From Vicinamibacterales bacterium (GTDB taxonomy: Bacteria; Acidobacteriota; Vicinamibacteria; Vicinamibacterales; SCN-69-37), in NCBI GenBank assembly GCA_046597705.1, contig JBKJJZ010000510.1, positions 699 to 64,698 of the forward strand: 64,000 nt of DNA. Reading direction: 5' to 3'. Below the pieces are notes generated by a model. That model saw only the letters and a program-made list of their open reading frames with translations. It had not been told where the DNA came from and searched no databases. A program made the position numbers and the translations under genes. Numbering within the stretch: position 1 is the first letter of the stretch; each line of letters opens with the position of its first letter. Below, in pieces: positions 1,510 to 60,739 of the stretch.

Positions 1510-1645
1510 TCGGCGCCCCTGAAGGGACGCCCTACGTAATGTCGCGAACAACCGTCTGCACGTAGGGCGTCCCTTCAGGGACCCCGTGCGTACCGTTGCG
1601 ACATCCATCGTTACGTAGGGCGTCCCTTCAGGGGCGCCAATTGTC
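1510..1645. repeat. Cluster of three REP-like hairpin elements (one reverse, two forward) between convergent genes
   Basis: Copies are ggcgcccctgaagggacgccctacgt (1512-1537, reverse), gcacgtagggcgtcccttcagggacccc (1558-1585, degenerate) and tacgtagggcgtcccttcaggggcgccaattg (1612-1643). The same unit recurs at 8 or more other loci. Confidence 0.9.
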
Positions 1646-2764
1646 TCAGCGCGTCTCGCGTGTGACGTTGCTGATCTGCAGATCGAACCCGTTCGGCGTC
1701 GTCGTGTGGTAGCTCTGGTACTTCGCCGTGCGCATCGCTTCGAGCGTGTTGGGCCCCCCGCCCATGTCCACTCGTGCGTTGAGGCCGCGCTTGTCGAGCT
1801 CAGCTTTAACAGCATCGGGATCGAACCCGGCGATGCCGAATGAGATGTGCCCAATTGCGGCGCGTCGCGCGGCCGGTGCCGGCGTGACCGCCGGTGTCGC
1901 GCCCGCTGCCGCACCACGCCCGCCGCCTCCACCGCGGATGATGATGCCGCCGATGTCGCCGATCTGGCACTCGCTCTGGCTGCCTTCATCGGCGCCCGGT
2001 GTCCAGCCCAGGAGCGCATGGTAGAACGCGATCTGCTCCTTGTAGTTCGACGTTTCGAATGAAATGTGATCGAGCCAGACTGTCTTCCAATTGGTGGCCG
2101 CGAACGGAGCCGGGTCAGACACCTTGCCGTTGGCGGCGTCGCGCCGACGAGTCCGTGTGCTCCCGTTGCTGATCTGAAGATTGAATCCGTCGGCATCCTT
2201 GATGCGGAAGCTCTGGAAGTCTTTACCGTCGTTGTCAGCCACCGGATCCAAACCGCGCTTGCGCAATTCGGCTTCGACCTTCTTCGCATCCCAGGGTTCG
2301 ATGCCCCAGCAGTACGAATCGAACGCGGCCGTGCGCGGCGTGCGCCCGCCGCGCCCGCCGGCGGCGGCCGGGGTTGTCGCCGGCGCCGGCGCTGGCGCCT
2401 GGTAACCACCACGAATGACGAGGCCTCCCCAGTCGCCGATGTCGAGCACCGCCTGCTTGCCGTCGTAGCTCCGGATCTTCCAGTTCATGAGGGCTGCGTA
2501 ATACGCCGCTTCCTTCTCGACGTCCGCCACCTGCACCGAAAAGTGATCGAGCAGCACGGTCTTCCATCCAGTGGACGCAAATGGCGGTTTCGCCGGCGTC
2601 GTCTCGCATCCCGGTGTGCCGGCGCGCGCGCCGCCGCACTGGCCCTGACCGAAGACGGAAAGTGGTCGAGCGGCCACGGCGAACCCTAACGCGGCCAACA
2701 ACTGCCGCCGGCTGATTCGGCCCAGGTCGTAGTCCTGAAAGAGAGTTGTTGGAACGTCACCCAT
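1646..2764 (-). CDS. Tat-exported VOC (glyoxalase/bleomycin-resistance/dioxygenase) family protein with repeated VOC modules
   Basis: Twin-arginine signal GRISRRQLLAALGFAVA. Repeated VOC strands LLDHFSVQVADVEKE, WLDHISFETSNYKEQ and IGHISFGIAGFDPD. Confidence 0.75.
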   Translation of the reverse strand: MGDVPTTLFQDYDLGRISRRQLLAALGFAVAARPLSVFGQGQCGGARAGTPGCETTPAKPPFASTGWKTVLLDHFSVQVADVEKEAAYYAALMNWKIRSYDGKQAVLDIGDWGGLVIRGGYQAPAPAPATTPAAAGGRGGRTPRTAAFDSYCWGIEPWDAKKVEAELRKRGLDPVADNDGKDFQSFRIKDADGFNLQISNGSTRTRRRDAANGKVSDPAPFAATNWKTVWLDHISFETSNYKEQIAFYHALLGWTPGADEGSQSECQIGDIGGIIIRGGGGGRGAAAGATPAVTPAPAARRAAIGHISFGIAGFDPDAVKAELDKRGLNARVDMGGGPNTLEAMRTAKYQSYHTTTPNGFDLQISNVTRETR

Positions 2765-3997: not shown

Positions 3998-4037
3998 CCT
4001 ATTGCCTCATTGCCCATTTGCCTCAATGCCCCATTTC
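3998..4037 (-). repeat. (AATGGGGC)n-type octamer array, forward relative to the minus strand, ~28 nt upstream of the gcdH start
   Basis: The plus strand reads cctattgcctcattgcccatttgcctcaatgccccatttcc, which is the reverse complement of the array seen at 8796, 11826, 48450 and 60859. Confidence 0.85.
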
Positions 4038-6767
4038 CAAGACGGCTATAATCGCCGGGCTACCTTGCCCCTCGCCATCGGATCAAGACTCGGCCACTAC
4101 GAGATCGTGTCGCCCCTGGGTGCCGGAGGCATGGGAGAGGTGTATCGCGCGCGCGACACGAAGCTCGATCGAGACGTAGCGCTGAAGATCCTGCCCGAGT
4201 CGTTCGCGACGGATCCGGATCGGCTGATGCGCTTCACGCGCGAGGCGAAGACGCTTGCGTCGCTCAATCACCCCAACATCGCGGCGATCTATGGGATCGA
4301 AGATCGCGCGCTGGTCATGGAACTGGTCGAGGGCCAGGACCTGTCGGCGACGATTCCATCGGGAGCGGGATTGCCCCTGACCGATGCGCTCGCCATCGCG
4401 AAACAGATCGCCGACGCGCTCGAGGCCGCACATGAGGCGGGCATCATCCATCGCGATCTGAAGCCCGCGAACATCAAGGTGCGCGCGGACGGTACGGTGA
4501 AGGTGCTGGACTTCGGGTTGGCAAAGGCGATGGATCCAGGCGTCGCCGAAGGGACGCCCTACGTTCCGTCATCGGCCGCAACCATGACATCCCCCGCCAT
4601 GACCGCGATGGGACTGATCCTGGGGACCGCGGCGTACATGTCGCCGGAACAGGCACGCGGCAAGCCGGTGGACAAACGCGCGGACATCTGGTCGTTTGGC
4701 GTCGTGCTCCACGAAATGCTCACCGGCAGCCTGCTGTTTCAGGGCGAGACGGTCAGCGACGTGCTGGCCGCGGTGCTTCGCGCTGATATCGATCTCGCGC
4801 AACTGCCGGCCGCGGTGCCGCCGGGAATTCGGCACCTGCTGTCGCGATGCCTCGAAAAAGACCCACGTCGCCGCCTGCGTGACATCGGCGAAGCTCGCAT
4901 CTGGCTCGACCTTCCCATTGCGGTGACGGGCGCGGGCGGGCACACGCCGGGAATTGCGCAAGAAGCCGCTCGCGCGTCAGCGCCGGGTCGAATGACACGC
5001 GTATGGCCGGTGCTCGCCATCGCAAGCACTGTCGCCGCGGTGGGTCTTGCCGCATGGAGTGTTCGCGCCGCACCGGCGCAGTTGCCCATCATCCGTGCGT
5101 CGATACAGTTGCCGCCGGGCACCGAGTACGCCATCGAGGCCTCGAATCCGCCCAACGTCGCGGTTTCTCCGGACGGCACCACGATTGCCTTCGCCGCGAC
5201 CGAGCTTGGCGCGGCACCAACCGAGACCACGCTGTATCTCAGGAGACTTCAGGATGTGGCGGCTACGCCGGTGCCTGACAGTGCCGGCGCGCGCGTTCCG
5301 TTTTTTTCGTATGACGGCCGGTCGGTCGGGTTTATCGCCAAGGGCACTCTCAAGAGAGCCTCGCTCACCGGCGGCGCGCCCAGCGTCATCGCGACCGGCA
5401 TCGCCAACGTGTGGGGCACCGCCTGGCTGCCTGACAACACGATTGTGTTCGCAAATCCACTGCCGACAGGCGAGATGTTGTTTTCCGTTTCCGACACAGG
5501 CGGCAAGCCCGAACTGCTCAGCCGCGTCGAGCGCCTCGACCGCGACAACAGTTTTCCTCGCGCGCTCGATGCTGAACACCTGCTGGTGACCATGTGGACC
5601 GGTGGACTCTATACGGACGGCAACATCTTCAAGTACTCGCGCAAGACCAGGGCCGTGACCACGCAGTTGGTGGAAGGCGGCAGCCAGGGACACCTCGTCG
5701 GCGGCACGCACCTGGTATACGCCCGAGGCGCGGAACTGCTGGCGCAGCCATACCCCGGAGGCACTGGCCAGTCGGGCGCTGTGAAGATGCTGGATGGTGT
5801 GTTGACCGACTCCGCGTATGCCACGTCGCAATTCGATGTATCGAGCGCAGGCGCCCTGGTGTACGCGCCCGCGCCGCTTACGGCGTCGGCAGCTGCGATC
5901 GTGTGGGTGTCCACCGATGGAGCGACCGACGTTGTATTCGAGGATTCGCGCATTGAAACGCCGCGTGCTTCCGCTGACGGCCGGCACATCGTCTTCGTCA
6001 GCACGGATGCGAAACGCGAAAAAGAACTATGGACGTTCGACCTGACGGCGGGACGCCGCTCCCCGCTGACCAGCACCGGTGGCGAAGAATACGCTCCGAC
6101 GATTTCCACGGATGGGTCGCAGGTGTTCTTTTCGGCCTGGCGAGACAAACCGGGGTTGTACCTCACGTCTGTGCGCGGAGTCCTGGAGTCGCTGGTTGCA
6201 ATACCGCAGAACCGCGCGGTTCGGAGCTGGTCGCTGTCGGCCGGCAACCGGTGGCTGGCGGTCACCGACGATGTGCCCGGCGGTGCTGTGAACCGCAGCG
6301 GCGCCGATATCGGCGTCATCGACCTCACGTCGAAAACGCTGGAACCCCAATGGCTCACGGCCACACCTTTTCGTGAGGATCACCCCGCGTTTTCTCCAGA
6401 CGTCACCCTGCTTGCGTACACATCAACTCAACTGGGTGAGCCTGACATCTGGGTCATGCCGTTTCCGGCTGACCCGGCGCGGCCTGCCATGCCTGTGTCG
6501 AGGGTGGGGGGAAGCAACCCGTTCTGGTCATCAAATGGCCAGACGTTGTACTACCTGAACGGCCCTTCGGTGATGGCCTCCAGCGTCACGCGCGGTCCGT
6601 CAGTGATGTTTTCCGAGCCGCGCATCGTCTTCACACAGTCGAACCTGGCCGTCATCGGGGTCGCGCCAGACGGACGGTTTCTGGCCGTCCGCCGTACGCA
6701 CGAACCCGTGACACGGCTCGAGATGGTGTTGAACTGGGTCCGGGAGTTGAAGGACAAAGTCAGGTGA
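4026..6767 (+). CDS. Hanks-type Ser/Thr protein kinase with a TM segment and C-terminal TolB/WD40-like beta-propeller
   Basis: Kinase motifs GAGGMGEVYRA, ALKIL, HRDLKPANI, DFGLAK and YMSPEQ. TM segment VWPVLAIASTVAAVGLAAW. Repeated propeller signatures SPDGTTIAF, SYDGRSVGF, SADGRHIVF, STDGSQVFF and APDGRFLAV. The ORF opens at TTG 4002 inside the repeat array, so ATG 4026 was chosen; the start is uncertain. Confidence 0.85.
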   Translation: MPHFQDGYNRRATLPLAIGSRLGHYEIVSPLGAGGMGEVYRARDTKLDRDVALKILPESFATDPDRLMRFTREAKTLASLNHPNIAAIYGIEDRALVMELVEGQDLSATIPSGAGLPLTDALAIAKQIADALEAAHEAGIIHRDLKPANIKVRADGTVKVLDFGLAKAMDPGVAEGTPYVPSSAATMTSPAMTAMGLILGTAAYMSPEQARGKPVDKRADIWSFGVVLHEMLTGSLLFQGETVSDVLAAVLRADIDLAQLPAAVPPGIRHLLSRCLEKDPRRRLRDIGEARIWLDLPIAVTGAGGHTPGIAQEAARASAPGRMTRVWPVLAIASTVAAVGLAAWSVRAAPAQLPIIRASIQLPPGTEYAIEASNPPNVAVSPDGTTIAFAATELGAAPTETTLYLRRLQDVAATPVPDSAGARVPFFSYDGRSVGFIAKGTLKRASLTGGAPSVIATGIANVWGTAWLPDNTIVFANPLPTGEMLFSVSDTGGKPELLSRVERLDRDNSFPRALDAEHLLVTMWTGGLYTDGNIFKYSRKTRAVTTQLVEGGSQGHLVGGTHLVYARGAELLAQPYPGGTGQSGAVKMLDGVLTDSAYATSQFDVSSAGALVYAPAPLTASAAAIVWVSTDGATDVVFEDSRIETPRASADGRHIVFVSTDAKREKELWTFDLTAGRRSPLTSTGGEEYAPTISTDGSQVFFSAWRDKPGLYLTSVRGVLESLVAIPQNRAVRSWSLSAGNRWLAVTDDVPGGAVNRSGADIGVIDLTSKTLEPQWLTATPFREDHPAFSPDVTLLAYTSTQLGEPDIWVMPFPADPARPAMPVSRVGGSNPFWSSNGQTLYYLNGPSVMASSVTRGPSVMFSEPRIVFTQSNLAVIGVAPDGRFLAVRRTHEPVTRLEMVLNWVRELKDKVR

Positions 6768-8041
6768 CCCTTCGCCGGCACACCATTCCTCTGCTCAGGG
6801 ACCGCCATTCGCATCCGCTGCTGTACGCCGCGTTGATGGACGCGGTGGATTTGAATCGGCCTGGGGAATCCCGCGAATCCGCGATCGAACGCATTACCGC
6901 GGCCGCTGCCCGCGGCGGGACGGGCTGGACGATCGCCACCGGCTGGAACAGCGGCCGTTTCCCGCTCGAGAAATCCGACTTCGACGGCCTGCCTCCAATC
7001 GTCGTCCTCAGTCTGTCGATCCACGGGCTCATCGTGAATGACAACGGCCGGTTGCTTCTGCGAGAGCACGACGCGACGGTGGCCGAACATCTTGATGACC
7101 AGGACTGGATTGAGCGGAATCTTCGAAGAGTGCTCAATCTGTTTGCCCGGGCCGGTGCCTCAACGGAACGGTTGAGAACCTTCTTCCGCCGGCTGCGCGA
7201 GCTTGGCGTGCACAGCGCAGAGGAAATGCTGCTTGTCGGCGAGGAAGAGATTCACTTATTTGACGCGGCGGGTCTGGAGAGCCGCACGCAATTCTGGGCA
7301 GCGCCCGAGACCTACGAATCGGCGTCACTCGCGCATCGCGAACGCATTCGAGGCATCAAGCTGTTCACGGACGGGGCCATCGGCGTCACGACCGCAGCGT
7401 TGAACCACAAGTACAGGACGGCGGATCACCACGGAATGCTGTTGTATGGCGACGAGGAGCTGGAGTCGCTAATCGCGCGCTACTCGCCTGAGAAACCGAT
7501 GGCCATCCACGCCATTGGCGACGCCGCCATCGATCAGGTCGTGTCCGCCGTTGAAAGGGTACGGCGACAAGTCCCGTCGAGTCACGTGATTCGCATCGAG
7601 CACGCGCAATTCATCTCCGAGTCCACGGCCAGTCGCGCCAAGACGCTGGGTCTGCATCTCTCCATGCAGCCGAACTTCTCAGAGGATTCCGTCACCTACG
7701 CCGATCGGCTCCCGATTGGCTATCCGGCCAACAACAATCCATTCCGCATGCTCATCGATCGAGCTGGCTTCGCGCCCGGCGTTGATCTCTACTTCGGTTC
7801 AGACGGCATGCCGCATGGCGTGGAAGAGGCCTTGCGACAGTCACTCTTCCCCGACGGCGGATACGAAGGCCAGGTGCTCACGCTCGACGAATTCATCGCC
7901 GGCTACTGCCTTCCTGACTTGACTGAAGGCTCGATCGATCTGGAAATTGACTCACAAGCACGTCGCTTTCGCGCCACAGTCTCGCCGCGAGCGTCAGATC
8001 CTGGGCCGCCGGCGACGGATCGACGGCATCAAAGCGATTGA
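6764..8041 (+). CDS. Amidohydrolase family protein (YtcJ/Amidohydro_3-like metal-dependent hydrolase)
   Basis: Motifs DRHSHP, IHAIGDAAIDQV, IRIEHAQF, SMQPNF and FGSDGMP. The GTG start overlaps the kinase stop (GTGA at 6764-6767). Confidence 0.7.
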   Translation: MTLRRHTIPLLRDRHSHPLLYAALMDAVDLNRPGESRESAIERITAAAARGGTGWTIATGWNSGRFPLEKSDFDGLPPIVVLSLSIHGLIVNDNGRLLLREHDATVAEHLDDQDWIERNLRRVLNLFARAGASTERLRTFFRRLRELGVHSAEEMLLVGEEEIHLFDAAGLESRTQFWAAPETYESASLAHRERIRGIKLFTDGAIGVTTAALNHKYRTADHHGMLLYGDEELESLIARYSPEKPMAIHAIGDAAIDQVVSAVERVRRQVPSSHVIRIEHAQFISESTASRAKTLGLHLSMQPNFSEDSVTYADRLPIGYPANNNPFRMLIDRAGFAPGVDLYFGSDGMPHGVEEALRQSLFPDGGYEGQVLTLDEFIAGYCLPDLTEGSIDLEIDSQARRFRATVSPRASDPGPPATDRRHQSD

Positions 8042-12855: not shown

Positions 12856-13530
12856 ATGCGAACCCTCCGAATCACGCTCGCGCTGATGCTGGTGTTTGCG
12901 GCCGTGGCACTGGTGCCGGCCCAGACACCGCCCCCGGCCACCACAACCGTTCAGACGCCGCCTCCCCCAGGCACGCCTGTGCAGACGCCCGCTCCGGGAC
13001 GCGGAGGCGGAGGTGGGCGCGGCCGCGGTGGCACGGTCATCATGACGCTCACCGCGCCCTGGGCGGCGGGCGCCGAGATTCCCGTCAAGTACACACAAGC
13101 CGGCGGCGAATTGTCGCCCGCATTGAACTGGGACAATCCGCCGGAAACGGTCGTCAGCTTCGCGCTGATTGTTCACGACGTATCCGCCCCGGTGAATCCG
13201 GGAACCGACGACATGTTGCACTGGATGGTGTGGAACATTCCCGCGGCATCGCGCGGGCTGCCCGAGGGCGTGCCCCGCGGATCGCAACTGACCGATGGCA
13301 CACGTCAGATCAGCGCGACGGGACCGAACTATCGCGGCCCCGGCGCCGCGGCATCGGGACCGCCGCATGTCTACGTGTTCGAGTTGTATGCGCTGGATGC
13401 GACGATCGATGTCCCCGCCCTGGGGCCGACCGGCGCCAGCGTGCCGCAGACGCGCGCCGCAGTCATGGCGGCCATGGCCACCCACGTGCGCGGCAAAGCC
13501 GTCACCGCGGGCGTCTTCAAGCGCCGCTGA
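12856..13530 (+). CDS. YbhB/YbcL family Raf-kinase-inhibitor-like (PEBP) protein, secreted
   Basis: Signal peptide and a Pro-rich linker. Motifs SPALNWDNPP, FALIVHDVSAP, HWMVWNIP and PPHVYVFELYALD. Confidence 0.8.
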   Translation: MRTLRITLALMLVFAAVALVPAQTPPPATTTVQTPPPPGTPVQTPAPGRGGGGGRGRGGTVIMTLTAPWAAGAEIPVKYTQAGGELSPALNWDNPPETVVSFALIVHDVSAPVNPGTDDMLHWMVWNIPAASRGLPEGVPRGSQLTDGTRQISATGPNYRGPGAAASGPPHVYVFELYALDATIDVPALGPTGASVPQTRAAVMAAMATHVRGKAVTAGVFKRR

Positions 13531-13634
13531 GTGGCGCCCCTCAAGGGACGCCCTACGTCCGGCGGCGTGGCGCCCCTCAAGGGACGCCAGTACGAGCAGC
13601 TTGCGTAGGGCGTCCCTTTAGGGGCGCCAAATCG
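13531..13634. repeat. Three REP-like hairpin elements (two reverse, one forward)
   Basis: Copies are gtggcgcccctcaagggacgccctacgtcc, gtggcgcccctcaagggacgccagtacg and gcgtagggcgtccctttaggggcgccaaatcg. Confidence 0.9.
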
Positions 13635-13734: not shown

Positions 13735-13998
13735 ATGAGAAAACTGAAGATTGGACTGGTCGCGGCGGCGGCATTCTTGATCGCGGGCATCACGGCCCCG
13801 GCCCCGGCAAGCGCGCAGGGACCCGGCGGCAAAGTGGTGATCTGCCACACGCCTGGCCACCGCAATGATTCGCTGCAGCTCCGCGGCCAGTGTGGCGGAG
13901 GCCCTCAGGCTCCGACGAATAACAAGGTCATCGAGATCGAAGTCTCGACCAACGCCTGTTGGGCGCACCTGGGCGGGCCCTGCCAGCTCGGGACGTAG
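13735..13998 (+). CDS. Small secreted Cys-containing protein (87 aa precursor), unknown function
   Basis: Strong RBS and signal peptide MRKLKIGLVAAAAFLIAGITAPAPASA. The mature ~60 aa carries 4 Cys (VVICHTPG...GQCGG...STNACWAHLGGPCQLGT). Confidence 0.6.
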   Translation: MRKLKIGLVAAAAFLIAGITAPAPASAQGPGGKVVICHTPGHRNDSLQLRGQCGGGPQAPTNNKVIEIEVSTNACWAHLGGPCQLGT

Positions 13999-14017
13999 CG
14001 TCGGCGGTTTCCACAGA

Positions 14018-14101
14018 GGGGGACGGGTCTCGATCTGTGGAAAACTTTCCGGACATTGATGACTGAGTCCGGAAGTTTCCCACAGTTCGAGGCCCGTCCC
14101 C
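14018..14101. terminator. Long imperfect palindrome (~35-bp arms) between convergent genes; probable bidirectional terminator
   Basis: Left arm ggggacgggtctcgatctgtggaaaactttccggac, centre attgatgactga, right arm gtccggaagtttcccacagttcgaggcccgtcccc. There is also a local 10-bp hairpin tttccacaga/tctgtggaaa. Confidence 0.5.
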
Positions 14102-14105
14102 TTTG

Positions 14106-15527
14106 CTACTTCACCAGAAACAATTTGTCCTGGCGCCTGAGCGCCCAGCGCACTTTGCCGTCGGCGCCGATGATCATGTCTTCCTCCTGCGCCATGCGCA
14201 CCGGCTGGCCGCCCCACTCCGGCACGGGCGTCGTCGCCTGAAGTTCGATCGAAAACCACATCGACGGAATCACCCTGGCGTCGCCGCGGCCGGGCACGCC
14301 GTTCTGGTAATCCCACAAACCAATCAGCGGTCCCGCGCCGTGTCCGTTCACGCCAATCGGGTGTGAATACATCGTGCCGTCAATGCCTTTGGCCTTCATG
14401 CCTTCCAGCACCGACAGTAGAATCTCGTTGCCCGTACGGCCGGGACGAATTTCAGCCATCGCGATGTCCTGCATGGCGTTCGCATTCGCCAGCGCCTTCT
14501 TCAGACCGGCGGGCGCATCGGTCTCGCCGGGTTTCAGCACGTATGCGTTGTGTTGCGTGTCGGTGTTGAGCCGCGCGACCGTGATGCCGACATCGCAGTG
14601 CAACACGTCGCCGCGCTGGATGATCGGATCCGCGCCAAGCTGTTCGTCGGTCGCGCCCTGTCGCTGGACCTCAATGCTTGGCTGGAACCACGTGGCCATG
14701 CCTTGATCGTTCACGCGTTGCCGCCACCACCACACCAGGTCGCTCGCCCGGGTCTGGCCCGGCACGATCACCTTTTCGGAAAACATCGTCTGCGTCATCT
14801 GCCACACGTGCGCCGTCATCTTCTCGAAGAACGCTTCTTCATCCGGCAGTCGTGAGGCGATGAGTTCGAGCGGCAGACCCTCCGCGTCCTTGAACTTCGC
14901 CGACCACGTGGTGCCGAGCGCGGCGGTCATGCCTTGCAGCTCGCCGCTTGTCAGGCCGTCGGTAAAGGCAAACACGGTCGAACGATTGATGCCGATGACC
15001 GACGGCTTGCGCTCCTCGATCACTTGCTTGAGCGCCTGCCACTGTTCGTCACCCCAGAGTTCGGCCTGGCGGCCGCCCACCGCGGCCCGGACGGGCGCCG
15101 TGGACCTGCGCGCTTCGAACACGCCGCCCTGGGACGTTCCGCCCAACGCGATGCGATCGACGCAGGTCGCCGTTACCGGCGTCTTCGCGGCCGCGCACCT
15201 GTCGAAGAACACATATATCGTGCGGCGGCGCGCGGCGAAGGTTTCGGGCGCAACCAGCGAGGAGAAGACGGGATCCTCGTTGTATTCGCGCATCGGCACC
15301 ACCCACAGGTCGATGCCGTGTTTTCGCATCAATGCGGGCAGAAACGTGTCGAGACGCTGTTTCAGCCATGACTGTTGCATGACCGCCTGTTCCCGCAGCG
15401 TGCCAAACGGGCGTTCGGTAGTGGGCACCGCGTTGGGCGCGAGCCGTTCTTGAAAATCAGACGCAGCGATTACAGAAACGCTGAAGGCCAGCGCCGCGAA
15501 GGCTACCCGAAAAGTGCTAGATGACAC
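14106..15527 (-). CDS. M24 family metallopeptidase (Xaa-Pro aminopeptidase/creatinase-like), secreted
   Basis: VLHCDVGI, MYSHPIGVNGHGAGP and FSIELQ match the pita-bread fold pattern. GTG 15527 is preceded by GGGAGGA and followed by the signal peptide STFRVAFAALAFSVSVIAA. Confidence 0.75.
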   Translation of the reverse strand: MSSSTFRVAFAALAFSVSVIAASDFQERLAPNAVPTTERPFGTLREQAVMQQSWLKQRLDTFLPALMRKHGIDLWVVPMREYNEDPVFSSLVAPETFAARRRTIYVFFDRCAAAKTPVTATCVDRIALGGTSQGGVFEARRSTAPVRAAVGGRQAELWGDEQWQALKQVIEERKPSVIGINRSTVFAFTDGLTSGELQGMTAALGTTWSAKFKDAEGLPLELIASRLPDEEAFFEKMTAHVWQMTQTMFSEKVIVPGQTRASDLVWWWRQRVNDQGMATWFQPSIEVQRQGATDEQLGADPIIQRGDVLHCDVGITVARLNTDTQHNAYVLKPGETDAPAGLKKALANANAMQDIAMAEIRPGRTGNEILLSVLEGMKAKGIDGTMYSHPIGVNGHGAGPLIGLWDYQNGVPGRGDARVIPSMWFSIELQATTPVPEWGGQPVRMAQEEDMIIGADGKVRWALRRQDKLFLVK

Positions 15528-22516: not shown

Positions 22517-24058
22517 GTGACACCGGACCCCGGCCCCTTCGACTCGCGTTTGGCTCGCTCAGGGCAGGCTCTGGATGTCCTCGTTATCGGCGCCGGACCA
22601 GCAGGGTGCGCCGCCGCAACCGTGCTTGCGCAATGCGGCCATCGCGTTCTACTGGTCGATCGCCCATCCAACAGTCGACCGGCCCTTGCCGAATCGATCC
22701 CTCCAAGCGCGCGGCGCATTCTCGTGACCCTCGGGATGAAGAACGCCGTGGATGCCGCGGGCTTCCATCCCTGGCTGGGTAATACCGTCTGGTGGGGCAG
22801 CGCGGATGCGCGAGTGGAGTCTTTCGCGTCCGGCGACGTGGGCTATCAGGTGGAACGCGATCGTTTCGATGCGGTGCTGCGCGGCGTGGCCTTAAACGCC
22901 GGAGCCGAAGTAAGCGCCGGCGTCGTTCGCGACGTCACGATCCTCGGCCTCGACCCGTCGTTCTCGGAAACCTCGGTTGCCGCCCTCGTCGAAGCAACGG
23001 GAACAGCGATAGAGGTCACCGCGAAGATCGTCCTCGATTGTTCGGGCCGCGCGGGAGTCGTCGCGCGCAAAGGCTTTCGCGTGATCGAGGCATCACACCG
23101 AACGGTGGCGCTTGTGGGAGTGTGGCGCGCCGATGCCGCGTGGCCAGCCGGGCAACGTGGACACACTCTGGTTGCCTCGCATGCGGACGGCTGGGCGTGG
23201 TCCGTGCCGACGGCAGAGGACACGCGCTATGTCACTGTGATGGTGGATCCCGAGCGGAGCCACCTTTCACGCGGGGTGCCTTCGATTGATGTCTACCTCG
23301 CCGAACTCAGGAAGGTCCACGCGTTCGTGCCGCTGCTGGAACAGGCTGCTCTGATCGATGGGCCGTGGGGCGCTGATGCCTCGCTCTACAGCACCGAGCA
23401 TTACGCGGGCCCGGGCTTCCTGCTCGTGGGCGATGCCGCGTCGTTCATCGATCCGCTGTCGTCCTTCGGGGTGAAGAAGGCGCTCGCCTCCGGATGGCTG
23501 GCGGCCATCGCCGCGAACACGATTCTGAAGGCGCCCGACATGCGCGATGAGGCGCTGACATTCTACGCACGCCGCGAGCGCGCGGTTGTTGACAGCTTCC
23601 GCCAGCAGACCGCTCGATACGCCGCTGACACCATCAAGACATCCGGCCATCCGTTCTGGGAGGCGCGCGTGGATCGATTTGCCGACTTGGCGCCCCTGAA
23701 GGGACGTTCTACGCACGCCGAGGACGACTCCGTCCTCGCCGCCCTCGACGACATCCGTCGTCGCCCCGAGATCCACCTTGAGCGAAGTGACTGCGTGAGC
23801 ACAGGTCCTCGTGCCGCGATTCGAGGGCAGTTGATAGTGATGGAGGACCATCTATTCCTGCCGGCGTGGCCCGAGGGCATCCGCTACCTTCGCAATATCG
23901 ATCTCTTGATGCTGTTGCGGCTGGCACCCGACCATCGAGACGTCGGTGCCCTCTATGACGCGCTGTTCCAGGCACAGCCGGGTGTATCGTTACCGGACTT
24001 TCTCGGGGCCCTTTCGACGATGATCGCGCGAGGGGCCTTGAAACACACCGACACGTAG
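22517..24058 (+). CDS. qhpG: FAD-dependent monooxygenase, QhpG-like (Trp hydroxylation of QhpC)
   Basis: GxGxxG motif DVLVIGAGPAGCAAA, halogenase/monooxygenase-like fold signatures LVGDAASFIDPLSSFGV, and a position immediately upstream of qhpA-D-C-B. Confidence 0.7.
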   Translation: MTPDPGPFDSRLARSGQALDVLVIGAGPAGCAAATVLAQCGHRVLLVDRPSNSRPALAESIPPSARRILVTLGMKNAVDAAGFHPWLGNTVWWGSADARVESFASGDVGYQVERDRFDAVLRGVALNAGAEVSAGVVRDVTILGLDPSFSETSVAALVEATGTAIEVTAKIVLDCSGRAGVVARKGFRVIEASHRTVALVGVWRADAAWPAGQRGHTLVASHADGWAWSVPTAEDTRYVTVMVDPERSHLSRGVPSIDVYLAELRKVHAFVPLLEQAALIDGPWGADASLYSTEHYAGPGFLLVGDAASFIDPLSSFGVKKALASGWLAAIAANTILKAPDMRDEALTFYARRERAVVDSFRQQTARYAADTIKTSGHPFWEARVDRFADLAPLKGRSTHAEDDSVLAALDDIRRRPEIHLERSDCVSTGPRAAIRGQLIVMEDHLFLPAWPEGIRYLRNIDLLMLLRLAPDHRDVGALYDALFQAQPGVSLPDFLGALSTMIARGALKHTDT

Positions 24059-24083
24059 GGCGTGGCTTCAGCCGCGCCAAATG
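24052..24083 (+). repeat. REP-like hairpin, type-2 stem variant (GGCGTGGC/GCCGCGCC)
   Basis: cacgtagggcgtggcttcagccgcgccaaatg overlaps the qhpG stop codon and lies in the qhpG-qhpA spacer. Confidence 0.85.
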
Positions 24084-40832: not shown

Positions 40833-40837
40833 GGAGG

Positions 40838-40897
40838 TACGTAGGGCATCCCTTTAGGGGCGCCGAATTGGCGCGGCTGAAGCCACGCCCTACGTAC
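40838..40897. repeat. Head-to-head pair of REP-like elements, one type-1 and one type-2 stem
   Basis: Sequence is gtacgtagggcatccctttaggggcgccgaattggcgcggctgaagccacgccctacgtac. The ends GTACGTAGGGC/GCCCTACGTAC are mutually complementary. Confidence 0.9.
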
Positions 40898-48074: not shown

Positions 48075-48488
48075 GTGCGAAATCGGCTGCTGTACCTCGC
48101 CGGCGTCTGCTTTGTCGTGGCATTGGGTCTGGCCAGCCGGCGGTACGCTGCGGCTCTGCCATCCTTTATCGCGCAGTACGCTGGCGACACGCTGTGGGCC
48201 GTGATGGTTTTCGGGATCATCGGCGTGATCGCAGCCCGTTGGTCAACGGCTCGCGTGGCGATCGCGGCCTTGCTCGTCTCCTACAGCGTAGAAATCAGTC
48301 AGCTCTATCACGCGCCGTGGATCGACAGCATCCGCGCCACCCGACTCGGCGGGCTGATATTGGGATACGGATTTCTCTGGTCCGACATCGTGTGCTACTC
48401 GGCAGGCGTGGGCGTGTGCGTGGCGCTCGAGCAATTCGCACGCGGCGATAAATGGGGCAATGGGGCAATGAGGCAATTCCACAATTAA
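48075..48488 (+). CDS. DUF2809 family membrane protein
   Basis: LGLASRRY...YAGDTLWAVMVF...VEISQLYH...IRATRLGGLILGYGFLWSDIVCY. The last ~12 codons run into the octamer array. Confidence 0.6.
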   Translation: MRNRLLYLAGVCFVVALGLASRRYAAALPSFIAQYAGDTLWAVMVFGIIGVIAARWSTARVAIAALLVSYSVEISQLYHAPWIDSIRATRLGGLILGYGFLWSDIVCYSAGVGVCVALEQFARGDKWGNGAMRQFHN

Positions 48489-48553
48489 TTGCCAAATTGG
48501 TTGCATTGCCTCACTCCACTGCCTCATTGCCCCATCGCCTCATTGCCCAATTC
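48450..48553. repeat. Octamer arrays in imperfect inverted arrangement between convergent genes
   Basis: The left part is aaatggggcaatggggcaatgaggcaattcc. The right part is ttgcattgcctcactccactgcctcattgccccatcgcctcattgcccaattc. Confidence 0.85.
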
Positions 48554-48564
48554 TTCCCCCGCGC

Positions 48565-51348
48565 CTACTTGACCGCCCTGACCTTCCGCGCATCGGTGAT
48601 CCACATTCCTCGACCGTAGGTGGCAACCACAATGAGGTGATCGCGCGGATGGACCTGCAGGTCGGACACCTGCACTGACGGCAGGTTGGCACCCAGCACG
48701 TCCCAACGCCGGCCTCCATCGCGTGACACATACACGCCGAAGTCGTTACCGGCGTACAGCACGTCCTTTACCGCCGGGTCTTCGCGGACCACGTTGATCG
48801 ACCCGGATGGAATGTTGCCAACGAGGCTGGTCCACGTCACGCCGTAGTCGGTGGACTTGAACAGGTAGGGCGCGAAGTCGTCGTCTTCCCGGCCGCGCAG
48901 AGCGACGAATGCCGTGCCCGCGTCGAATTTCGACGGCACGATGCGCGAGACCCATTTCTTGAGCGCCATCGGCAGGTTCGTGCCAATGCCGGTCCACGTC
49001 CGGCCATCATCTCTGGTCACATGCAGGTTGCCGTCATCCGTGCCGGCGTAGATGACGCCCCTGGTCAGCGGCGATTCAGCGATGTGTGTGAGGGTCTGAT
49101 ACGGGATTGCAGACGGGTTGATACCCATCTGGCGGGGATTCTGATCGGTAAGGTCGTTGCTGATGCGCTGCCACGTGTCGCCGCGATCGCGCGATCGGTA
49201 GACATACTGATAGCCGGCATAGATCGTGTTGGGATCGAACGGTGAGATGACAATCGGCGCCATCCACTGCGCGCGTTGCGGCGGTTCTCCGTCGATGGTC
49301 TTCGGACGGATGTTCGTCGACTTTCCCGCCCCGCCCGCAGCAGGCGCATTGCCGCCGCGGCCGGCACGGCCACGACCGGCCGGTGCCGGCGTCACGTCCG
49401 TCCGTGAGAAATTCCCGTAGAAGCCATGGGAGTAGACGATGTTCGGATGCACGGGATCAATCGCGTGCATGCTGCCCTCGCCGCCCGGGGCGCCCTGCCA
49501 CGGCATGGGCGCGAACATCCGGCGCCCCGCGCGCGCGTCCACCGCCACACGAAAGCTTCCGGCGTCCTGCACCGATCCGTAGGCCCGGAATGGCATCGCC
49601 ATGTCGAGTTCCACGTTGTAAAACTGCGTGCCGTGAATACCGGTGGCCTCGCGCTTCGTCCGCCCGCCGTCATTGGTCATCGTGAACCCCTGATCGTGCG
49701 CGGTGTAGACCACCTTCGGATTGATCGGGTCGATCCACATCCGGTGATTGTCGCCGCCGCCTGCGGCAAACCGCTTGAACGTGGCACCCGCGTCGTCAGA
49801 CACACTGACCTCCAACGCGAGGACGTAGACACGGTTCTCGTTCTTCGTATCAACGCGAATCTGTGTGAAGACCCAGTTGTAGGTGTTGCCCAGGCCCATC
49901 ATCTGACTCGCGGTCTCGGGGGTCTGGCCGCTGGTCTTGCGCCAGGTGGCGCCTTTGTCATCGCTCCGGTAAATCTCCATGCCGCGAATGATGCCGCTGC
50001 TCGGCGGCAGGGGCCGTCCGTACGCGTCGTTCTCGCCCGGCATGGCGGGGCGGCCCGTGTCGTAGTTGTCAATCACGGCATAGACGACATTTGGATTGGA
50101 TCGCGCGATGTCGAGGCCGATTCGTCCGCGGAACCTCGGCTCGGGCAAACCGGTGTTTGTGGGCGCCCACGTGGCGCCTCCATCAGTGGTCTTCCACACC
50201 CCGCCTTCGGTGTAGGTGGGTTCCACGCGCGGGTCGCTCCACTTTCGACGCACCCGCTGCCACATGCCGGCATACAGAGTGTTGGGATCCTTCGGGTCCA
50301 TGACCAGATCAACCGCGCCGGTATTCGGGCTGCGATACAGCGACTTCGTCCAGGTCGCACCGCCATTCGTCGTCTTGAACACACCGCGCATGTCATTGGG
50401 CGTCCACTCATGTCCCGACGCCGCGACGTAGACGATATCGGGATTGGTCGGATGAACCAGGACCCGGCCGATGGTGCCGGTGTCGGTGAGACCCATGTGC
50501 TGCCAGGTCCTGCCGGCATCGCTGGACTTGTAGACGCCGGTGCCCGATACGCTTGCGCGGAAGAGATTGGATTCGCCGGTGCCCACCCAGACAATGGCCG
50601 GGCTCGACGGCGCCACCGCCACATCACCGATGCTGGCAGTCGCTTCGTGTTCGAAGATCGGCCGCCACGTCAGGCCACGGTTCGCGGACTTCCAGACGCC
50701 GCCGGTGGCCGCGCCCACGTAGATGGTCCGTTGGCCCTGCACATCGGCGACCGCAATCGACGTCATTCGCCCGGTGTGGTTCGATGGACCAATCGACTGC
50801 CATGGAATGAGCTTGTACGGCGATGCCGTCGTCATCGCTTTGTGAGTGCCGTAGGCGATAGCGTGTGCCTCGGCTCCCGTGGGCGTCGTGAATTCGAAGA
50901 GTTCGACGTCGAACACCAGGTTGCCTCGTGGGGCGCCCGGTCTGGGGTTTTCGCCATACGCAAGCGCCGACGGAATCCAGAAGCGGCGCTTCTCGCCCTT
51001 CACCATGAGCTGCACGCCTTCAGTCCATCCCCGAATGACGCGGGTCACGCCGAACGACGACGGCTCTCCGCGCACCACAGAGCTATCGAACATCCGTCCG
51101 TCGGGGGTCCATCCCGAGTAGTGAACCTTCACCGTGGACGCGAGCGTGGGATGTTCGGTGCCATTGCCGGGTGTGATCACTTTCGACGCCAGACCCGATG
51201 CGGTCACGATGGCGTCAGGTGGCACGGCCGCAACATCTGGCGGCGCCGGCAGTTGGGCTGGTGGGCCTTGTGGTGCGCCGGAAGCGACCACCGTGAGTGT
51301 CACGATTGCCGTCAGCATCAGCGCGGGGAGAAATGGGCGCGTTGTCAT
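48565..51348 (-). CDS. Secreted FKBP-type peptidyl-prolyl isomerase fused to a BNR/Asp-box (sortilin/VPS10-like) double propeller
   Basis: The FKBP part is YSGWTPDGRMFDSS...VIRGWTEGVQLMVKGEKRRFWIPSALAYG...LVFDVELFEF. There are at least 8 Asp-box motifs (SxDxGxTW), including SDAGRTW, TNGGATW, TDGGATW, DDKGATW, RDRGDTW, RDDGRTW and TDYGVTW. Confidence 0.8.
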   Translation of the reverse strand: MTTRPFLPALMLTAIVTLTVVASGAPQGPPAQLPAPPDVAAVPPDAIVTASGLASKVITPGNGTEHPTLASTVKVHYSGWTPDGRMFDSSVVRGEPSSFGVTRVIRGWTEGVQLMVKGEKRRFWIPSALAYGENPRPGAPRGNLVFDVELFEFTTPTGAEAHAIAYGTHKAMTTASPYKLIPWQSIGPSNHTGRMTSIAVADVQGQRTIYVGAATGGVWKSANRGLTWRPIFEHEATASIGDVAVAPSSPAIVWVGTGESNLFRASVSGTGVYKSSDAGRTWQHMGLTDTGTIGRVLVHPTNPDIVYVAASGHEWTPNDMRGVFKTTNGGATWTKSLYRSPNTGAVDLVMDPKDPNTLYAGMWQRVRRKWSDPRVEPTYTEGGVWKTTDGGATWAPTNTGLPEPRFRGRIGLDIARSNPNVVYAVIDNYDTGRPAMPGENDAYGRPLPPSSGIIRGMEIYRSDDKGATWRKTSGQTPETASQMMGLGNTYNWVFTQIRVDTKNENRVYVLALEVSVSDDAGATFKRFAAGGGDNHRMWIDPINPKVVYTAHDQGFTMTNDGGRTKREATGIHGTQFYNVELDMAMPFRAYGSVQDAGSFRVAVDARAGRRMFAPMPWQGAPGGEGSMHAIDPVHPNIVYSHGFYGNFSRTDVTPAPAGRGRAGRGGNAPAAGGAGKSTNIRPKTIDGEPPQRAQWMAPIVISPFDPNTIYAGYQYVYRSRDRGDTWQRISNDLTDQNPRQMGINPSAIPYQTLTHIAESPLTRGVIYAGTDDGNLHVTRDDGRTWTGIGTNLPMALKKWVSRIVPSKFDAGTAFVALRGREDDDFAPYLFKSTDYGVTWTSLVGNIPSGSINVVREDPAVKDVLYAGNDFGVYVSRDGGRRWDVLGANLPSVQVSDLQVHPRDHLIVVATYGRGMWITDARKVRAVK

Positions 51349-52636: not shown

Positions 52637-52641
52637 TTGGG

Positions 52642-52706
52642 GACGTAGGGCGTCCCTGCAGGGGCGCCAAATTGCGGACGTAGGGCGTCCCTTCAGGGGC
52701 GCCAAA

Positions 52707-58280: not shown

Positions 58281-58313
58281 GTACGTAGGGCGTGGCTTTA
58301 GCCGCGCCAATTG
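58281..58313 (+). repeat. REP-like hairpin, type-2 stem variant
   Basis: Sequence is gtacgtagggcgtggctttagccgcgccaattg. Confidence 0.85.
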
Positions 58314-59161: not shown

Positions 59162-60017
59162 GGCTGGTCGTGAAAATCAACGCCATGAGCCCAAGCTCTT
59201 CGCACAGTGCCAGACCCTCGTCAGGGCCAAGGACAAACGCGGCAGTGGCCACTGCGTCGGCGAGCATTGCGGTGGGGGCGACGACCGTGGCGCTGGCCAC
59301 ACGGTCAGCGGGCCGGCCGGTTCGCGGATCCACGATGTGATGTCCGCTGCCGGTCTGGCGTTCATAGTCACCCGACGTGCACACCGCTTCGTCAGACGCA
59401 CGCAGCACGTCGATCAATGCGCCGTCGATCCGTGGATGCCGTATGCCGACCGACCATGGTTCGCCCGACGGGTTCGTGCCGCCGAGATAGAGATCGCCAC
59501 CGGCATCGATGCCGAAGTCGTGAAGGGGCCGCAGCTGGCGGGCGGCCATGTCGATCGCAAGGCCCTTGGCCACTGCGCCGAGGTCGAGAATCAGCGGCCG
59601 TTTCAGGGTGATGGTCCTGGCATCGGCATCGCACTCCACGTCACGAAAGCTCACGTCGCTGGGCGAAACGATGTCTGTTCGCACGATGACACCGCTGCGG
59701 TGCTCCCGGTTGAAGCCCCGCGCCTCCATCGTGCGACCCACCGTGGGATCAAACGCGCCGTTCGTGTGCGCGGCCATTTCGATGACGAACCGCACCGCTT
59801 CAAACAGCAGATCGCTTACCACGACGGCCATGCCCGGCTGCGCAGACAGACGCATCAGTTCGCTTGCGGGATCAAAGCGACTGCATCGCGCTTCAACGTC
59901 GCGGAACCACTGAAACGCACGGTCAACGCTTTCCAGGGCCTCAGGCTGATCGCGGACCGAGATCGTCACGATGGTCCCGAGATGGACTTCGCTTCGGGAC
60001 GCCGTGCCGTGGTTCAC
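59124..60017 (-). CDS. apbE: FAD:protein FMN transferase (ApbE family)
   Basis: Motifs FDPASELMRL, GAFDPTVG, LDLGAVAKGLAIDMA, GGDLYLGG and HHIVDPRTGRPA. The GTG start overlaps the upstream stop (GTGA). Confidence 0.85.
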   Translation of the reverse strand: MNHGTASRSEVHLGTIVTISVRDQPEALESVDRAFQWFRDVEARCSRFDPASELMRLSAQPGMAVVVSDLLFEAVRFVIEMAAHTNGAFDPTVGRTMEARGFNREHRSGVIVRTDIVSPSDVSFRDVECDADARTITLKRPLILDLGAVAKGLAIDMAARQLRPLHDFGIDAGGDLYLGGTNPSGEPWSVGIRHPRIDGALIDVLRASDEAVCTSGDYERQTGSGHHIVDPRTGRPADRVASATVVAPTAMLADAVATAAFVLGPDEGLALCEELGLMALIFTTSLDRRETPGLRRE

Positions 60018-60739
60018 TTGGCCTTGTTGAGTGCGTCCACGACGGCCCAGTAGAGGGCGTTCGCGCTTTGCGTGGCGCCGCTGACGTAGTCCACGTCGGG
60101 ACCCTGGCGCGTCACCACCTGCGCGGGGAGATGGTTAATCCACGAACAGGAGTAGTTCGTCCAGCACTGCGCGATGGCCACGTTCACGATGCGGCCGTTC
60201 TCGATCTTGACGGACGCCTGGATTTCTCCATGGCGCGAGGTGCCCCAGCCCAGGTATGTGCCGTCGGCGTAGACCTCCTTCGGCATGCGCAAAGCAGGCG
60301 CGGGGGTCTCTTCAGGTTTTGTCACGGGCGCAGAGGCCGGCGTTGAAGTCACCACGACAGCCGGTGAGGGCACGGGCGTCGGCGGTACGTAGGGCGTCCC
60401 TTCAGGGGCGCCGGGTACGTAGGGCGTCCCTTTAGGGGCGCCGGGTACATAGGGCGTCCCTTCAGGGGCGCCACCAGAGACTCCGGTTTCACGTACAGCA
60501 ACCGCCGCAGGAGGCTCGACAGGTACCGGCGACGTCAATTCCCCTGCTGTAGCACGTGCCGGCATCGCCGGAGGTCGATCGTTGGTGGCGTCCTCGATGC
60601 GTTGCGCGGCCGCGCGCGTCTTCATGAACCCCGCGGCGTAGACCACCAGGATGGCCGCGGAACTCAGCGTGACGAGGCTGTTGGCGATCTTCTTGTTCGC
60701 AGCGGCACCGGGGGCCATGTGATGGCCGGCATTATACAA
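60014..60739 (-). CDS. Membrane-anchored FMN-binding-domain protein (ApbE flavinylation substrate)
   Basis: N-terminal TM anchor, Pro-rich linker, and FMN_bind-like domain YADGTYLGWGTSRHGEIQASVKIENGRIV...DVDYVSGATQSANAL (the SGAT flavinylation motif). Confidence 0.75.
   Translation of the reverse strand: MYNAGHHMAPGAAANKKIANSLVTLSSAAILVVYAAGFMKTRAAAQRIEDATNDRPPAMPARATAGELTSPVPVEPPAAVAVRETGVSGGAPEGTPYVPGAPKGTPYVPGAPEGTPYVPPTPVPSPAVVVTSTPASAPVTKPEETPAPALRMPKEVYADGTYLGWGTSRHGEIQASVKIENGRIVNVAIAQCWTNYSCSWINHLPAQVVTRQGPDVDYVSGATQSANALYWAVVDALNKAK
60385..60472 (+). repeat. Three tandem 30-bp REP-like units lying in-frame inside the FMN-binding-protein gene
   Basis: gtacgtagggcgtcccttcaggggcgccgg occurs three times (period 30 bp). 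On the coding (minus) strand it translates as GAPEGTPYVP GAPKGTPYVP GAPEGTPYVP. Confidence 0.9.

Follow-up and report, generated by a model that had tools for sequence, protein, structure and literature searches.

Repetitive extragenic palindromic (REP) elements tagged with GTAG are short hairpins of bacterial genomes, GC-rich and imperfectly palindromic over 20-40 nt. They usually number more than 100 per genome, lie mostly outside genes and avoid promoters. By the account in PMC3733652, sub-families with alternative complementary stem residues, as well as G:T pairs, are common among them. The E. coli enzyme TnpA-REP, a REP-associated tyrosine transposase (RAYT), reads folded single-stranded DNA (ssDNA) strand-specifically via the GTAG, the loop and stem irregularities, and cleavage and rejoining of such hairpins are known for the E. 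coli, Stenotrophomonas and Marinomonas enzymes (PMC8266576). A RAYT gene lying between inverted REPs is termed the REPtron arrangement (PMC6006769). Acidobacteria appear in the account of PMC3733652 only for Y1 transposases associated with terminal inverted repeats (TIRs). Here, a family of hairpins is described from a 64,000-nucleotide stretch of a Vicinamibacterales bacterium (GenBank assembly GCA_046597705.1, contig JBKJJZ010000510.1, positions 699 to 64,698, forward strand), called the window below. These units are very probably GTAG-tagged REPs of this genome, that is, ssDNA hairpins handled by a RAYT system. Statements on the whole genome rest on the window, on loci from other assemblies (L numbers) and on one public soil run that contains the window.

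Hairpin units, stem types and compensated changes

A search of the window for the core GGCGTCCC-N4-GGGGCGCC with at most two mismatches gave 26 strand-matches, against 0.35 expected from shuffles. In total, 17 REP copies were found, each 28-30 nt long, with 8 bp in the stem and 4 nt in the loop. The unit is laid out as a (GT)ACGTAG head, a GC stem of 8 bp, a TTYA loop and the second arm; oriented units start with (T)ACGTAGGGCG, and GTAG stands immediately 5' of the stem in 14 of the 17 copies. A sequence-only reading of the window had proposed a REP-like family with a structurally maintained stem and had listed 16 copies, all of which are present at the positions it gave. The covariance model that it suggested, here named R1, was built on 15 copies of the window plus 38 of other genomes, and recovers all 17 window copies. 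R1 scores 15 copies at 39-49 bits, with 13567-13593(-) at 27 bits. The weakest matches, both outside the seed, are 23687-23716(-) at 24 bits, a copy absent from the earlier list, and 4537-4566(-) at 21.6 bits, which that list contained; the best window match below these scores 13 bits.

Two stem types occur. Type 1 (GGCGTCCC/GGGGCGCC) is carried by 13 intact or lightly mutated window copies and type 2 (GGCGTGGC/GCCGCGCC) by three, at 24051, 40868(-) and 58281. The types differ at two stem positions adjoining the loop-closing pair and are identical in foot, outer stem, T:G position, loop and tail. Type 2 had been read as a doubly compensated variant, and in its three copies both altered positions are indeed compensated; among the 17 window copies there is no half-compensated stem with one arm of each type. 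The conserved T:G position was likewise borne out, being kept in 15 of 17 copies with T-A in the other two, and the loops named earlier (TTCA, TTTA, TGCA and TTGA) match those of the window copies.

The T:G pair is common to both window subtypes and to the relatives L011, L029, L037 and L080, and is therefore a feature of the lineage-wide system and not decay of a single copy. Other metagenome-assembled genomes (MAGs) have C:G in its place on the same stems. The position is thus a lineage-specific irregularity that may aid discrimination of strand or substrate, by analogy with the bulge that E. coli TnpA-REP requires and with the part that stem irregularities play in telling strands apart. When folded as ssDNA, the GTAG strand reaches -7.8 (type 1) and -8.8 (type 2) kcal/mol versus -7.1 and -6.3 kcal/mol for the complement; as RNA, the GTAG strand reaches -16.5 versus -11.4 and -12.4 kcal/mol for the complement. 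This asymmetry does not tell RNA from ssDNA.

Related genomes were searched by scanning 185,579 species genomes with the pattern ACGTAGGGCG-NNN-C-NNNN-G-NNN-CGCC, which leaves three inner pairs and the loop free. The scan returned at least 111 matches at no fewer than 108 loci, falling into two groups. Of the matches listed, 38 have a TTCA, TTTA or TTGA loop and come mostly from Vicinamibacterales, Vicinamibacteria or Acidobacteriota MAGs, and in 35 of these 38 the three free pairs are all complementary. More than 13 different free triplets are found among these 38, including GAC/GTC, GGG/CCC, GAA/TTC, CGG/CCG and CAA/TTG. The remaining 73 listed matches have arbitrary loops and come from unrelated GC-rich genomes, the chance matches there being used as an internal control; 15 of them are fully paired, and several of these are REPs of other loop classes. 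Exact type 1 is present in L029 and exact type 2 in L011 and L080, again among the matches listed, and Watson-Crick C:G replaces T:G in L034 (type 1) and in L003 and L097 (type 2).

In alignment A1, where the five outer pairs are fixed by the scan pattern and so uninformative, 98.6% of cells are paired versus 78.9% in shuffles and about 40% in slid registers, and the covariation score is 0.454 versus 0.092 in shuffles. Copies found with R1 outside the seed pattern have compensated changes at outer stem positions too, with GTAG and TTYA unchanged; GGCAGAGC/GCTCTGCC, GGCCGAAC/GTTCGGCC and GCCGGCCC/GGGCCGGC are examples. Compensated changes on a constant foot and loop indicate that the stem is kept as a structure, and the foot and loop as sequence. 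The structural part of the earlier proposal is thereby upheld, and the compensated continuum in relatives makes types 1 and 2 subtypes of one family.

Perfect hairpins headed by GTAGGGCG with other loops were also seen in L041 and L060 (Hymenobacteraceae MAG) and in L048 and L040 (Chloroflexota MAGs), for example GGCGAAGC-TCCT-GCTTCGCC, and GGCGACCC-GGCC-GGGTCGCC followed by CCTAC. Hairpins with this head in Hymenobacteraceae and Chloroflexota MAGs point to REP families with the same foot in other phyla.

RAYT genes in relatives and in a soil run

A motif search of all loci gave two Y1 transposase-like open reading frames (ORFs), in L098 and L105, with HVH/HLH and YxxxNP motifs. Both proteins match Pfam Y1_Tnp. 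The NCBIfam model NF047646, 'REP-associated tyrosine transposase', scores the L098, L105, L129 and L182 proteins at 103-192 bits (cut-off 80), and proteins that exceed this cut-off stay below the cut-off of the NCBIfam IS200 model. The L098 protein also matches the IS200/IS605-family Y1 transposase chains 2XM3/2XMA and E. coli TnpA-REP 4ER8 (E = 1.7e-6 for 4ER8). Two REP units lie just upstream of the ORF in L098, which is from an Acidobacteriota MAG, and the L105 ORF is flanked by inverted GTAGGGCGGAC(T/C)TTCAGGTCCGCC units with their heads outward.

Using the L098 protein, a metagenome scan retrieved 80 homologous loci of 42-99% identity, 78 of which read without stops. A perfect-stem GT[AG]G hairpin in + orientation lies within 250 nt upstream at 65 of 73 RAYT loci, and one in - orientation within 280 nt downstream at 60 of 70, where 73 and 70 are the loci among the 78 with enough flanking DNA. 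Control windows more than 600 nt away hold such a hairpin in 29 of 1036 cases (about 3% versus about 88% at RAYT flanks). This RAYT clade of soil metagenomes, flanked by inverted hairpins, is a canonical REPtron. The link to a RAYT that the sequence-only reading had anticipated is thus found in relatives, and only indirectly for the window's own sample.

In the RAYT tree, the grouping follows the foot and outer stem of the REPs alongside. The hairpins on either side of a single RAYT frequently have unlike stems, each fully paired, with the differences beside the loop, such as TGCGAGGC/GCCTCGTG versus TGCGACCC/GGGTCGTG, GCAGCCC versus GCAGGGC, and GTCCGGC versus GTCCGCC. At one RAYT the flanks are GAGGC/GCCTC and GACCC/GGGTC, the same CC/GG swap that separates type 1 from type 2. 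The type 1/type 2 dimorphism of the window is the same phenomenon as these differing flanks. A fixed left/right association, with one subtype always upstream of the RAYT, was considered and rejected, as both arrangements occur.

Two of these loci have further features. In L098, an ORF for an rve-type integrase, marking an insertion sequence (IS), lies at 7308-8000 directly downstream of the RAYT, at the site expected for the second REP; the IS may have inserted into or beside the REPtron. L105, a contig of 4970 bp labelled Aquisalimonas sp., carries its RAYT together with eight REPs of stem GGCGGACC/GGTCCGCC. The same stems are found in several Vicinamibacterales MAGs, and the RAYT shares only about 28% identity with the acidobacterial clade. 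This points either to mis-binning of the contig or to a distant RAYT that serves a similar REP.

The public soil run, X1, is a soil metagenome available as Logan contigs; of the words sampled from a 9-kb piece of the window, it contains 96%. Over 12 kb of the window, the unique parts are found in pieces of depth 5.9-11.1, and 554 X1 contigs pile up on the REPs of this 12-kb stretch, with many differing loose ends at the REP borders. Across the dimer at 40837-40897, the summed depth, about 9.5 in unique sequence, climbs to about 630-920 over the type 1 unit and to about 2200-2370 over its type 2 partner. Over REP units, the depth is 65-250 times the unique depth, which suggests hundreds of copies, summed over all soil organisms and hence not the copy number of this genome.

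No X1 contig matches the RAYT locus L188. With the RAYT locus L182, one X1 contig of 594 nt and depth 8.3 was caught through a 34-nt conserved block, and its loose ends translate to AFEKSEGRRL and (A)DEDALTVIA. A chimera query, consisting of protein P0009 carrying the fragment of this contig, retrieved P0243, an NCBI protein of 169 aa from a single 6375-bp contig, in which both peptides are found unchanged (20/20 residues) and which scores 109.6 bits on NF047646. The C-terminus of P0243 is W-R-P-stop, and the reverse complement of type 1 encodes T-GG CGC CCC TGA. The 594-nt contig stops 17 nt past the P0243 stop, exactly the remainder of a type 1 unit up to GTAC, and starts 67 nt before the ATG, the upstream GTAG of relatives being about 61-67 nt away. 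It is therefore rather likely that the window's organism has a RAYT bounded by type 1 REPs, the evidence being suggestive and not proof.

P0243 itself seems to end at a TGA within the loop of a reverse-oriented type 1 unit, comparable to the stop at 24056-24058 of the window, where the halogenase-like gene terminates at the TAG within a REP's GTAG head.

Position relative to genes and competing explanations

The gene map of the window, self-trained on codon usage, has 52 genes and is 91% coding. Twelve of the 17 copies lie in the non-coding DNA that makes up about 9% of the window, and all six intergenic clusters begin 0-22 nt past a stop codon, in agreement with the earlier remark that most copies sit at gene ends. 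REPs occupy 4 of 9 convergent junctions, 2 of 34 co-directional ones and none of the 8 divergent (promoter) spacers of the window (Fisher p = 0.006). In the interval 1510-1645, for example, three units follow the stop of a STAS-domain gene at 1508 and precede that of a convergent gene at 1646. All copies are collected in the table. Two convergent spacers without REPs hold other repeats: a long palindrome follows a small secreted-peptide gene in 13998-14106, and 48488-48565 contains an array of the octamer AATGGGGC.

Table. REP copies of the 64-kb window with their scores under covariance model R1; CDS, coding sequence.
Position	Strand	R1 score	Description
1510..1539	-	47.7 bits	Type 1 (GGCGTCCC/GGGGCGCC), loop TTCA; 2 nt past stop of STAS-domain gene (1508)
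1558..1587	+	39.5 bits	Type 1 5' arm, decayed 3' arm GGGACCCC (wobble position T-A, one C-C mismatch)
1611..1640	+	47.8 bits	Type 1, TTCA, tail AATTG; ends 5 nt before stop of convergent gene 1646..2764(-)
4537..4566	-	21.6 bits, outside seed	Degenerate REP in Ser/Thr kinase CDS 4026..6767(+); codes GVAEGTPYVP
13531..13560	-	44.9 bits	Type 1, loop TTGA; abuts stop of gene 12856..13530(+)
13567..13593	-	27 bits	Type 1 stem, TTGA, decayed head CGTACTGGCG in place of ACGTAGGGCG
13601..13630	+	41.5 bits	Type 1, loop TTTA, tail AAATC
23687..23716	-	24 bits, outside seed	Degenerate REP (AACGTCCC/GGGGCGCC) in CDS of halogenase-like FAD oxidoreductase; read APLKGRST
24051..24080	+	43.6 bits	Type 2 (GGCGTGGC/GCCGCGCC), TTCA; TAG of GTAG is stop of gene 22724..24058
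40837..40866	+	42.6 bits	Type 1, one A.C mismatch (GGCATCCC), TTTA; left half of head-outside inverted dimer
40868..40897	-	47.9 bits	Type 2, TTCA; right half of heterotypic inverted dimer (REPIN-like, 61 nt)
52641..52670	+	42.3 bits	Type 1, loop TGCA
52676..52705	+	47.2 bits	Type 1, TTCA; with the 52641 unit occupies whole 70-nt convergent spacer
58281..58310	+	46.3 bits	Type 2, TTTA, tail AATTG; in convergent spacer
60385..60414	+	49.1 bits	Type 1; first of three tandem 30-bp units in FMN_bind CDS 60014..60739(-)
60415..60444	+	47.5 bits	Type 1, TTTA; second tandem unit in the same CDS
60445..60474	+	44.8 bits	Type 1, head ACATAG; third unit of the tandem, same CDS

The findings speak for selection at the level of ssDNA that a RAYT recognises. 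Each unit would form a single-strand DNA hairpin with a 5' foot (TA)CGTAG, an 8-bp stem and a TTYA loop, and a RAYT (an HUH-Y1 enzyme like TnpA-REP) would recognise, on one strand, the foot together with the hairpin fold. Judging from E. coli TnpA-REP, the enzyme would cleave and rejoin DNA at the hairpin, so that copies spread and persist. The stem would drift by compensated changes because the enzyme would read foot, loop and shape, the stem itself needing only to pair. Types 1 and 2 would then be two subtypes under a single system, comparable to Y and Z among E. coli REPs, and their differing loop-proximal pairs would keep close inverted REPs from zipping into one long perfect palindrome. 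The T:G pair would favour the hairpin on the GTAG strand. Copies would accumulate where they are tolerated: right after stops, chiefly between convergent genes, and occasionally in frame in disordered linkers.

Several observations weigh against this explanation. The window contains no RAYT within its 64 kb, and exact type 1 or type 2 stems occur at 0 of the 80 RAYT loci. The REP flanks of P0243 are derived from the protein end and contig-end arithmetic and were not read directly, and the X1 depths belong to a whole soil community. Direct signs of recent movement, such as presence/absence polymorphism, were not observed. Finally, 5 of the 17 copies, at three loci, are intragenic, a point on which the sequence-only reading was silent.

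Selection could instead act mainly on RNA, with the hairpins serving as 3'-end structures that block exonucleases or terminate transcription and the U.G pair showing which strand is transcribed. Stabilisation of upstream mRNA is known for the REPs of E. coli. The placement of the six intergenic clusters just past stops, the enrichment at convergent junctions and the stabler RNA hairpin of the GTAG strand would all suit such a role, and G:T pairing in GTAG REPs has been so interpreted in the account of PMC3733652. The orientation of the units speaks against it: the first unit is sense to the upstream gene at four loci and antisense at two, clusters contain both orientations, and three units are antisense within a CDS. 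There is no U/T tract after the hairpin on either strand, the tails being AATTG, AAATC, GGG or ACC, so the units lack the T run of an intrinsic (Rho-independent) terminator, and nothing in the whole window reaches the gathering threshold of an Rfam 15 family. An explanation at the DNA level exists both for the conservation of the 5' foot and for the placement of units beside RAYT genes. Selection mainly as RNA is unlikely, and an RNA role is compatible with RAYT-handled ssDNA hairpins as a secondary effect.

The family could also be an orphan, once dependent on a RAYT and now multiplied only by slippage, local duplication and recombination. Tandem arrays with exact periods of 30 or 35-36 nt (52641/52676, 60385-60474 and 13531/13567), the decayed copies at 1558, 13567, 4537 and 23687, and a 64-kb window without a RAYT are what such a history would leave. 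Set against these, P0243 is a RAYT in the same soil run at the same depth, with a 3' end that fits a type 1 REP, and most copies are near-identical, suggesting recent turnover. An orphan family is decidedly unlikely.

A third explanation regards the palindromes as double-stranded DNA (dsDNA) sites of a regulatory or nucleoid protein, with the sequence conserved and not the folding. The units are palindromic and intergenic, and IHF and gyrase bind the bacterial interspersed mosaic elements (BIMEs) of E. coli, by the account in PMC2817692. However, the stem sequence varies freely as long as it is paired, which a sequence-reading protein would not permit, the asymmetric foot and the T:G position break dyad symmetry, and the divergent spacers are empty; this explanation is very improbable. 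That types 1 and 2 are unrelated families alike by chance has next to no probability: only the small number of type 2 copies in the window (three) speaks for it, against a foot, outer stem, T:G, loop and tail identical in both types, the joining of both in one dimer at 40837-40897, and the continuum of compensated stems on the same scaffold in relatives.

Inverted pairs, translated units and comparison with known systems

The arrangement of neighbouring units was compared for all perfect-stem GT[AG]G hairpins of the window and of all loci, close neighbours being those separated by 40 nt or less. Homotypic pairs are absent among the 35 close inverted pairs (17 head-outside and 18 head-inside), whereas they make up 18 of 29 close direct (tandem) pairs and 41 of 159 distant inverted pairs within a locus. 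The difference between close inverted and close direct pairs has p = 1e-8 and that between close and distant inverted pairs p = 1.4e-4, although many heterotypic pairs come from related loci and are not independent, so that the effective numbers are smaller. The head-outside dimer of the window, 40837-40897, joins type 1 with type 2 and conforms to the rule; it folds into an 11-bp outer stem made by the two feet, with separate small hairpins, and not into one long helix. Also counting against the rule, the homotypic tail-to-tail pairs 1510/1558 and 13567/13601 escape it, each having one decayed partner (1558 and 13567, respectively).

Purging of long perfect palindromes, or a need of the enzyme for independently folded hairpins, would fit as the cause of heterotypy. 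That close inverted pairs are always heterotypic would account for the coexistence of two stem types, and strict heterotypy would be a simple reason for families to keep two or more stem flavours. Heterotypic inverted pairs have a parallel in E. coli, where Y and Z REPs alternate in BIMEs and the REPtron combines Y with Z2.

Units inside coding sequences are translated. On the minus strand, 60385-60474 reads (GAPEGTPYVP)x3 with one E to K change, in the linker between a transmembrane helix and the FMN_bind domain. Homologues of this protein keep the anchor and the domain, and their Pro/Ala linker is hypervariable. Among 120 listed homologues, the GAPEGTPYVP triple is confined to the window protein, and P0126 carries one degenerate GAPKGTPS in the corresponding position. 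In the kinase, the unit at 4537 contributes the peptide GVAEGTPYVP to an unusually long activation loop, between DFGLAK and the canonical GTAAYM. A chance match of this copy to the kinase GTPxYM motif was considered and rejected, since the canonical GTAAYM lies further downstream and nearly the same GAPEGTPYVP-type peptide occurs in the FMN-binding protein. In the halogenase-like protein of CDS 22724..24058, the 23687 unit uses another reading frame, giving APLKGRST, and is situated downstream of the Pfam domain. The 4537-4566 unit resembles an old in-frame REP insertion in the Ser/Thr kinase.

A tentative, combined proposal is that the 30-nt unit spreads into disordered parts of proteins, where it is read in frame as the ten-residue module GAPEGTPYVP, and that the stem subtypes reflect a selected design rule instead of drift. 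By this rule, close inverted neighbours must differ at their loop-proximal pairs; every hairpin could then fold by itself, and long perfect palindromes would be avoided. If true, REPs would be a source of variation in protein linkers, like Rickettsia palindromic elements (RPEs). RPEs are short palindromic repeats of about 100-150 nt in a different phylum, which are sometimes in frame in genes and translated, and which are not known to have a RAYT. The translated unit here is 30 nt and gives GAPEGTPYVP, and the likeness lies in being an in-frame, translated palindromic repeat.

No published description of this REP family in Acidobacteriota was found in the REP/RAYT literature searched, and, going by its text, the stem family is not among the 24 families of PMC3733652. 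The compensated stem variant and the G:T pair are general properties of REP families already in the literature. The family belongs to a large superfamily flanking a RAYT clade in soil Acidobacteriota and is no new kind of system. Its interest lies in extending REP/RAYT (REPtron) systems, studied almost only in Proteobacteria, to Vicinamibacterales, which are abundant soil Acidobacteria. It also offers a clean natural covariation set, in which a constant foot and loop with a freely compensating stem predict the parts read by the enzyme. For annotation, the family accounts for assembly breaks, apparent terminator palindromes and odd Pro-rich protein repeats in these MAGs.

The closest described systems are the GTAG-tagged REPs as Di Nocera et al. 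2013 (PMC3733652) present them, especially short near-perfect palindromes like the SMAG elements of Stenotrophomonas maltophilia. These share the 5' GTAG, a GC stem of 6-9 bp and a short loop with the units here, as well as the groupings into singles, head-head, tail-tail and tandem arrangements, the compensated sub-families and the frequent G:T pairs. In contrast to what is presented there, the present family has a host of another phylum, a longer conserved foot, (TA)CGTAG, and a TTYA tetraloop conserved across the whole clade.

The E. coli REP/BIME system with TnpA-REP (RayT, PDB 4ER8; RAYT group 2) likewise has its RAYT between inverted REPs. Its subtypes Y, Z1 and Z2, served by one enzyme and arranged in heterotypic inverted pairs, parallel the subtypes of the window, and its enzyme needs a stem irregularity and uses GTAG to recognise folded ssDNA of one strand. 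With 29-37 nt and an AA-GC bulge, the REPs of E. coli are longer than the units here, whose 8-bp stem has a single T:G, and by the match cited above 4ER8 is only a distant relative of the RAYTs described here. In IS200/IS605 elements (IS608, ISDra2), an HUH-Y1 enzyme acts on subterminal ssDNA hairpins, with mismatched or loop bases as recognition points; unlike these, the hairpins here are dispersed in many copies without the gene. In the group 3 REPtrons of Stenotrophomonas and Marinomonas (Corneloup et al. 2021, PMC8266576), the palindromes are perfect or near-perfect and GTAG decides the strand. Some of their loop positions are intolerant of change, which fits the invariant TTYA loop of the Vicinamibacterales family.

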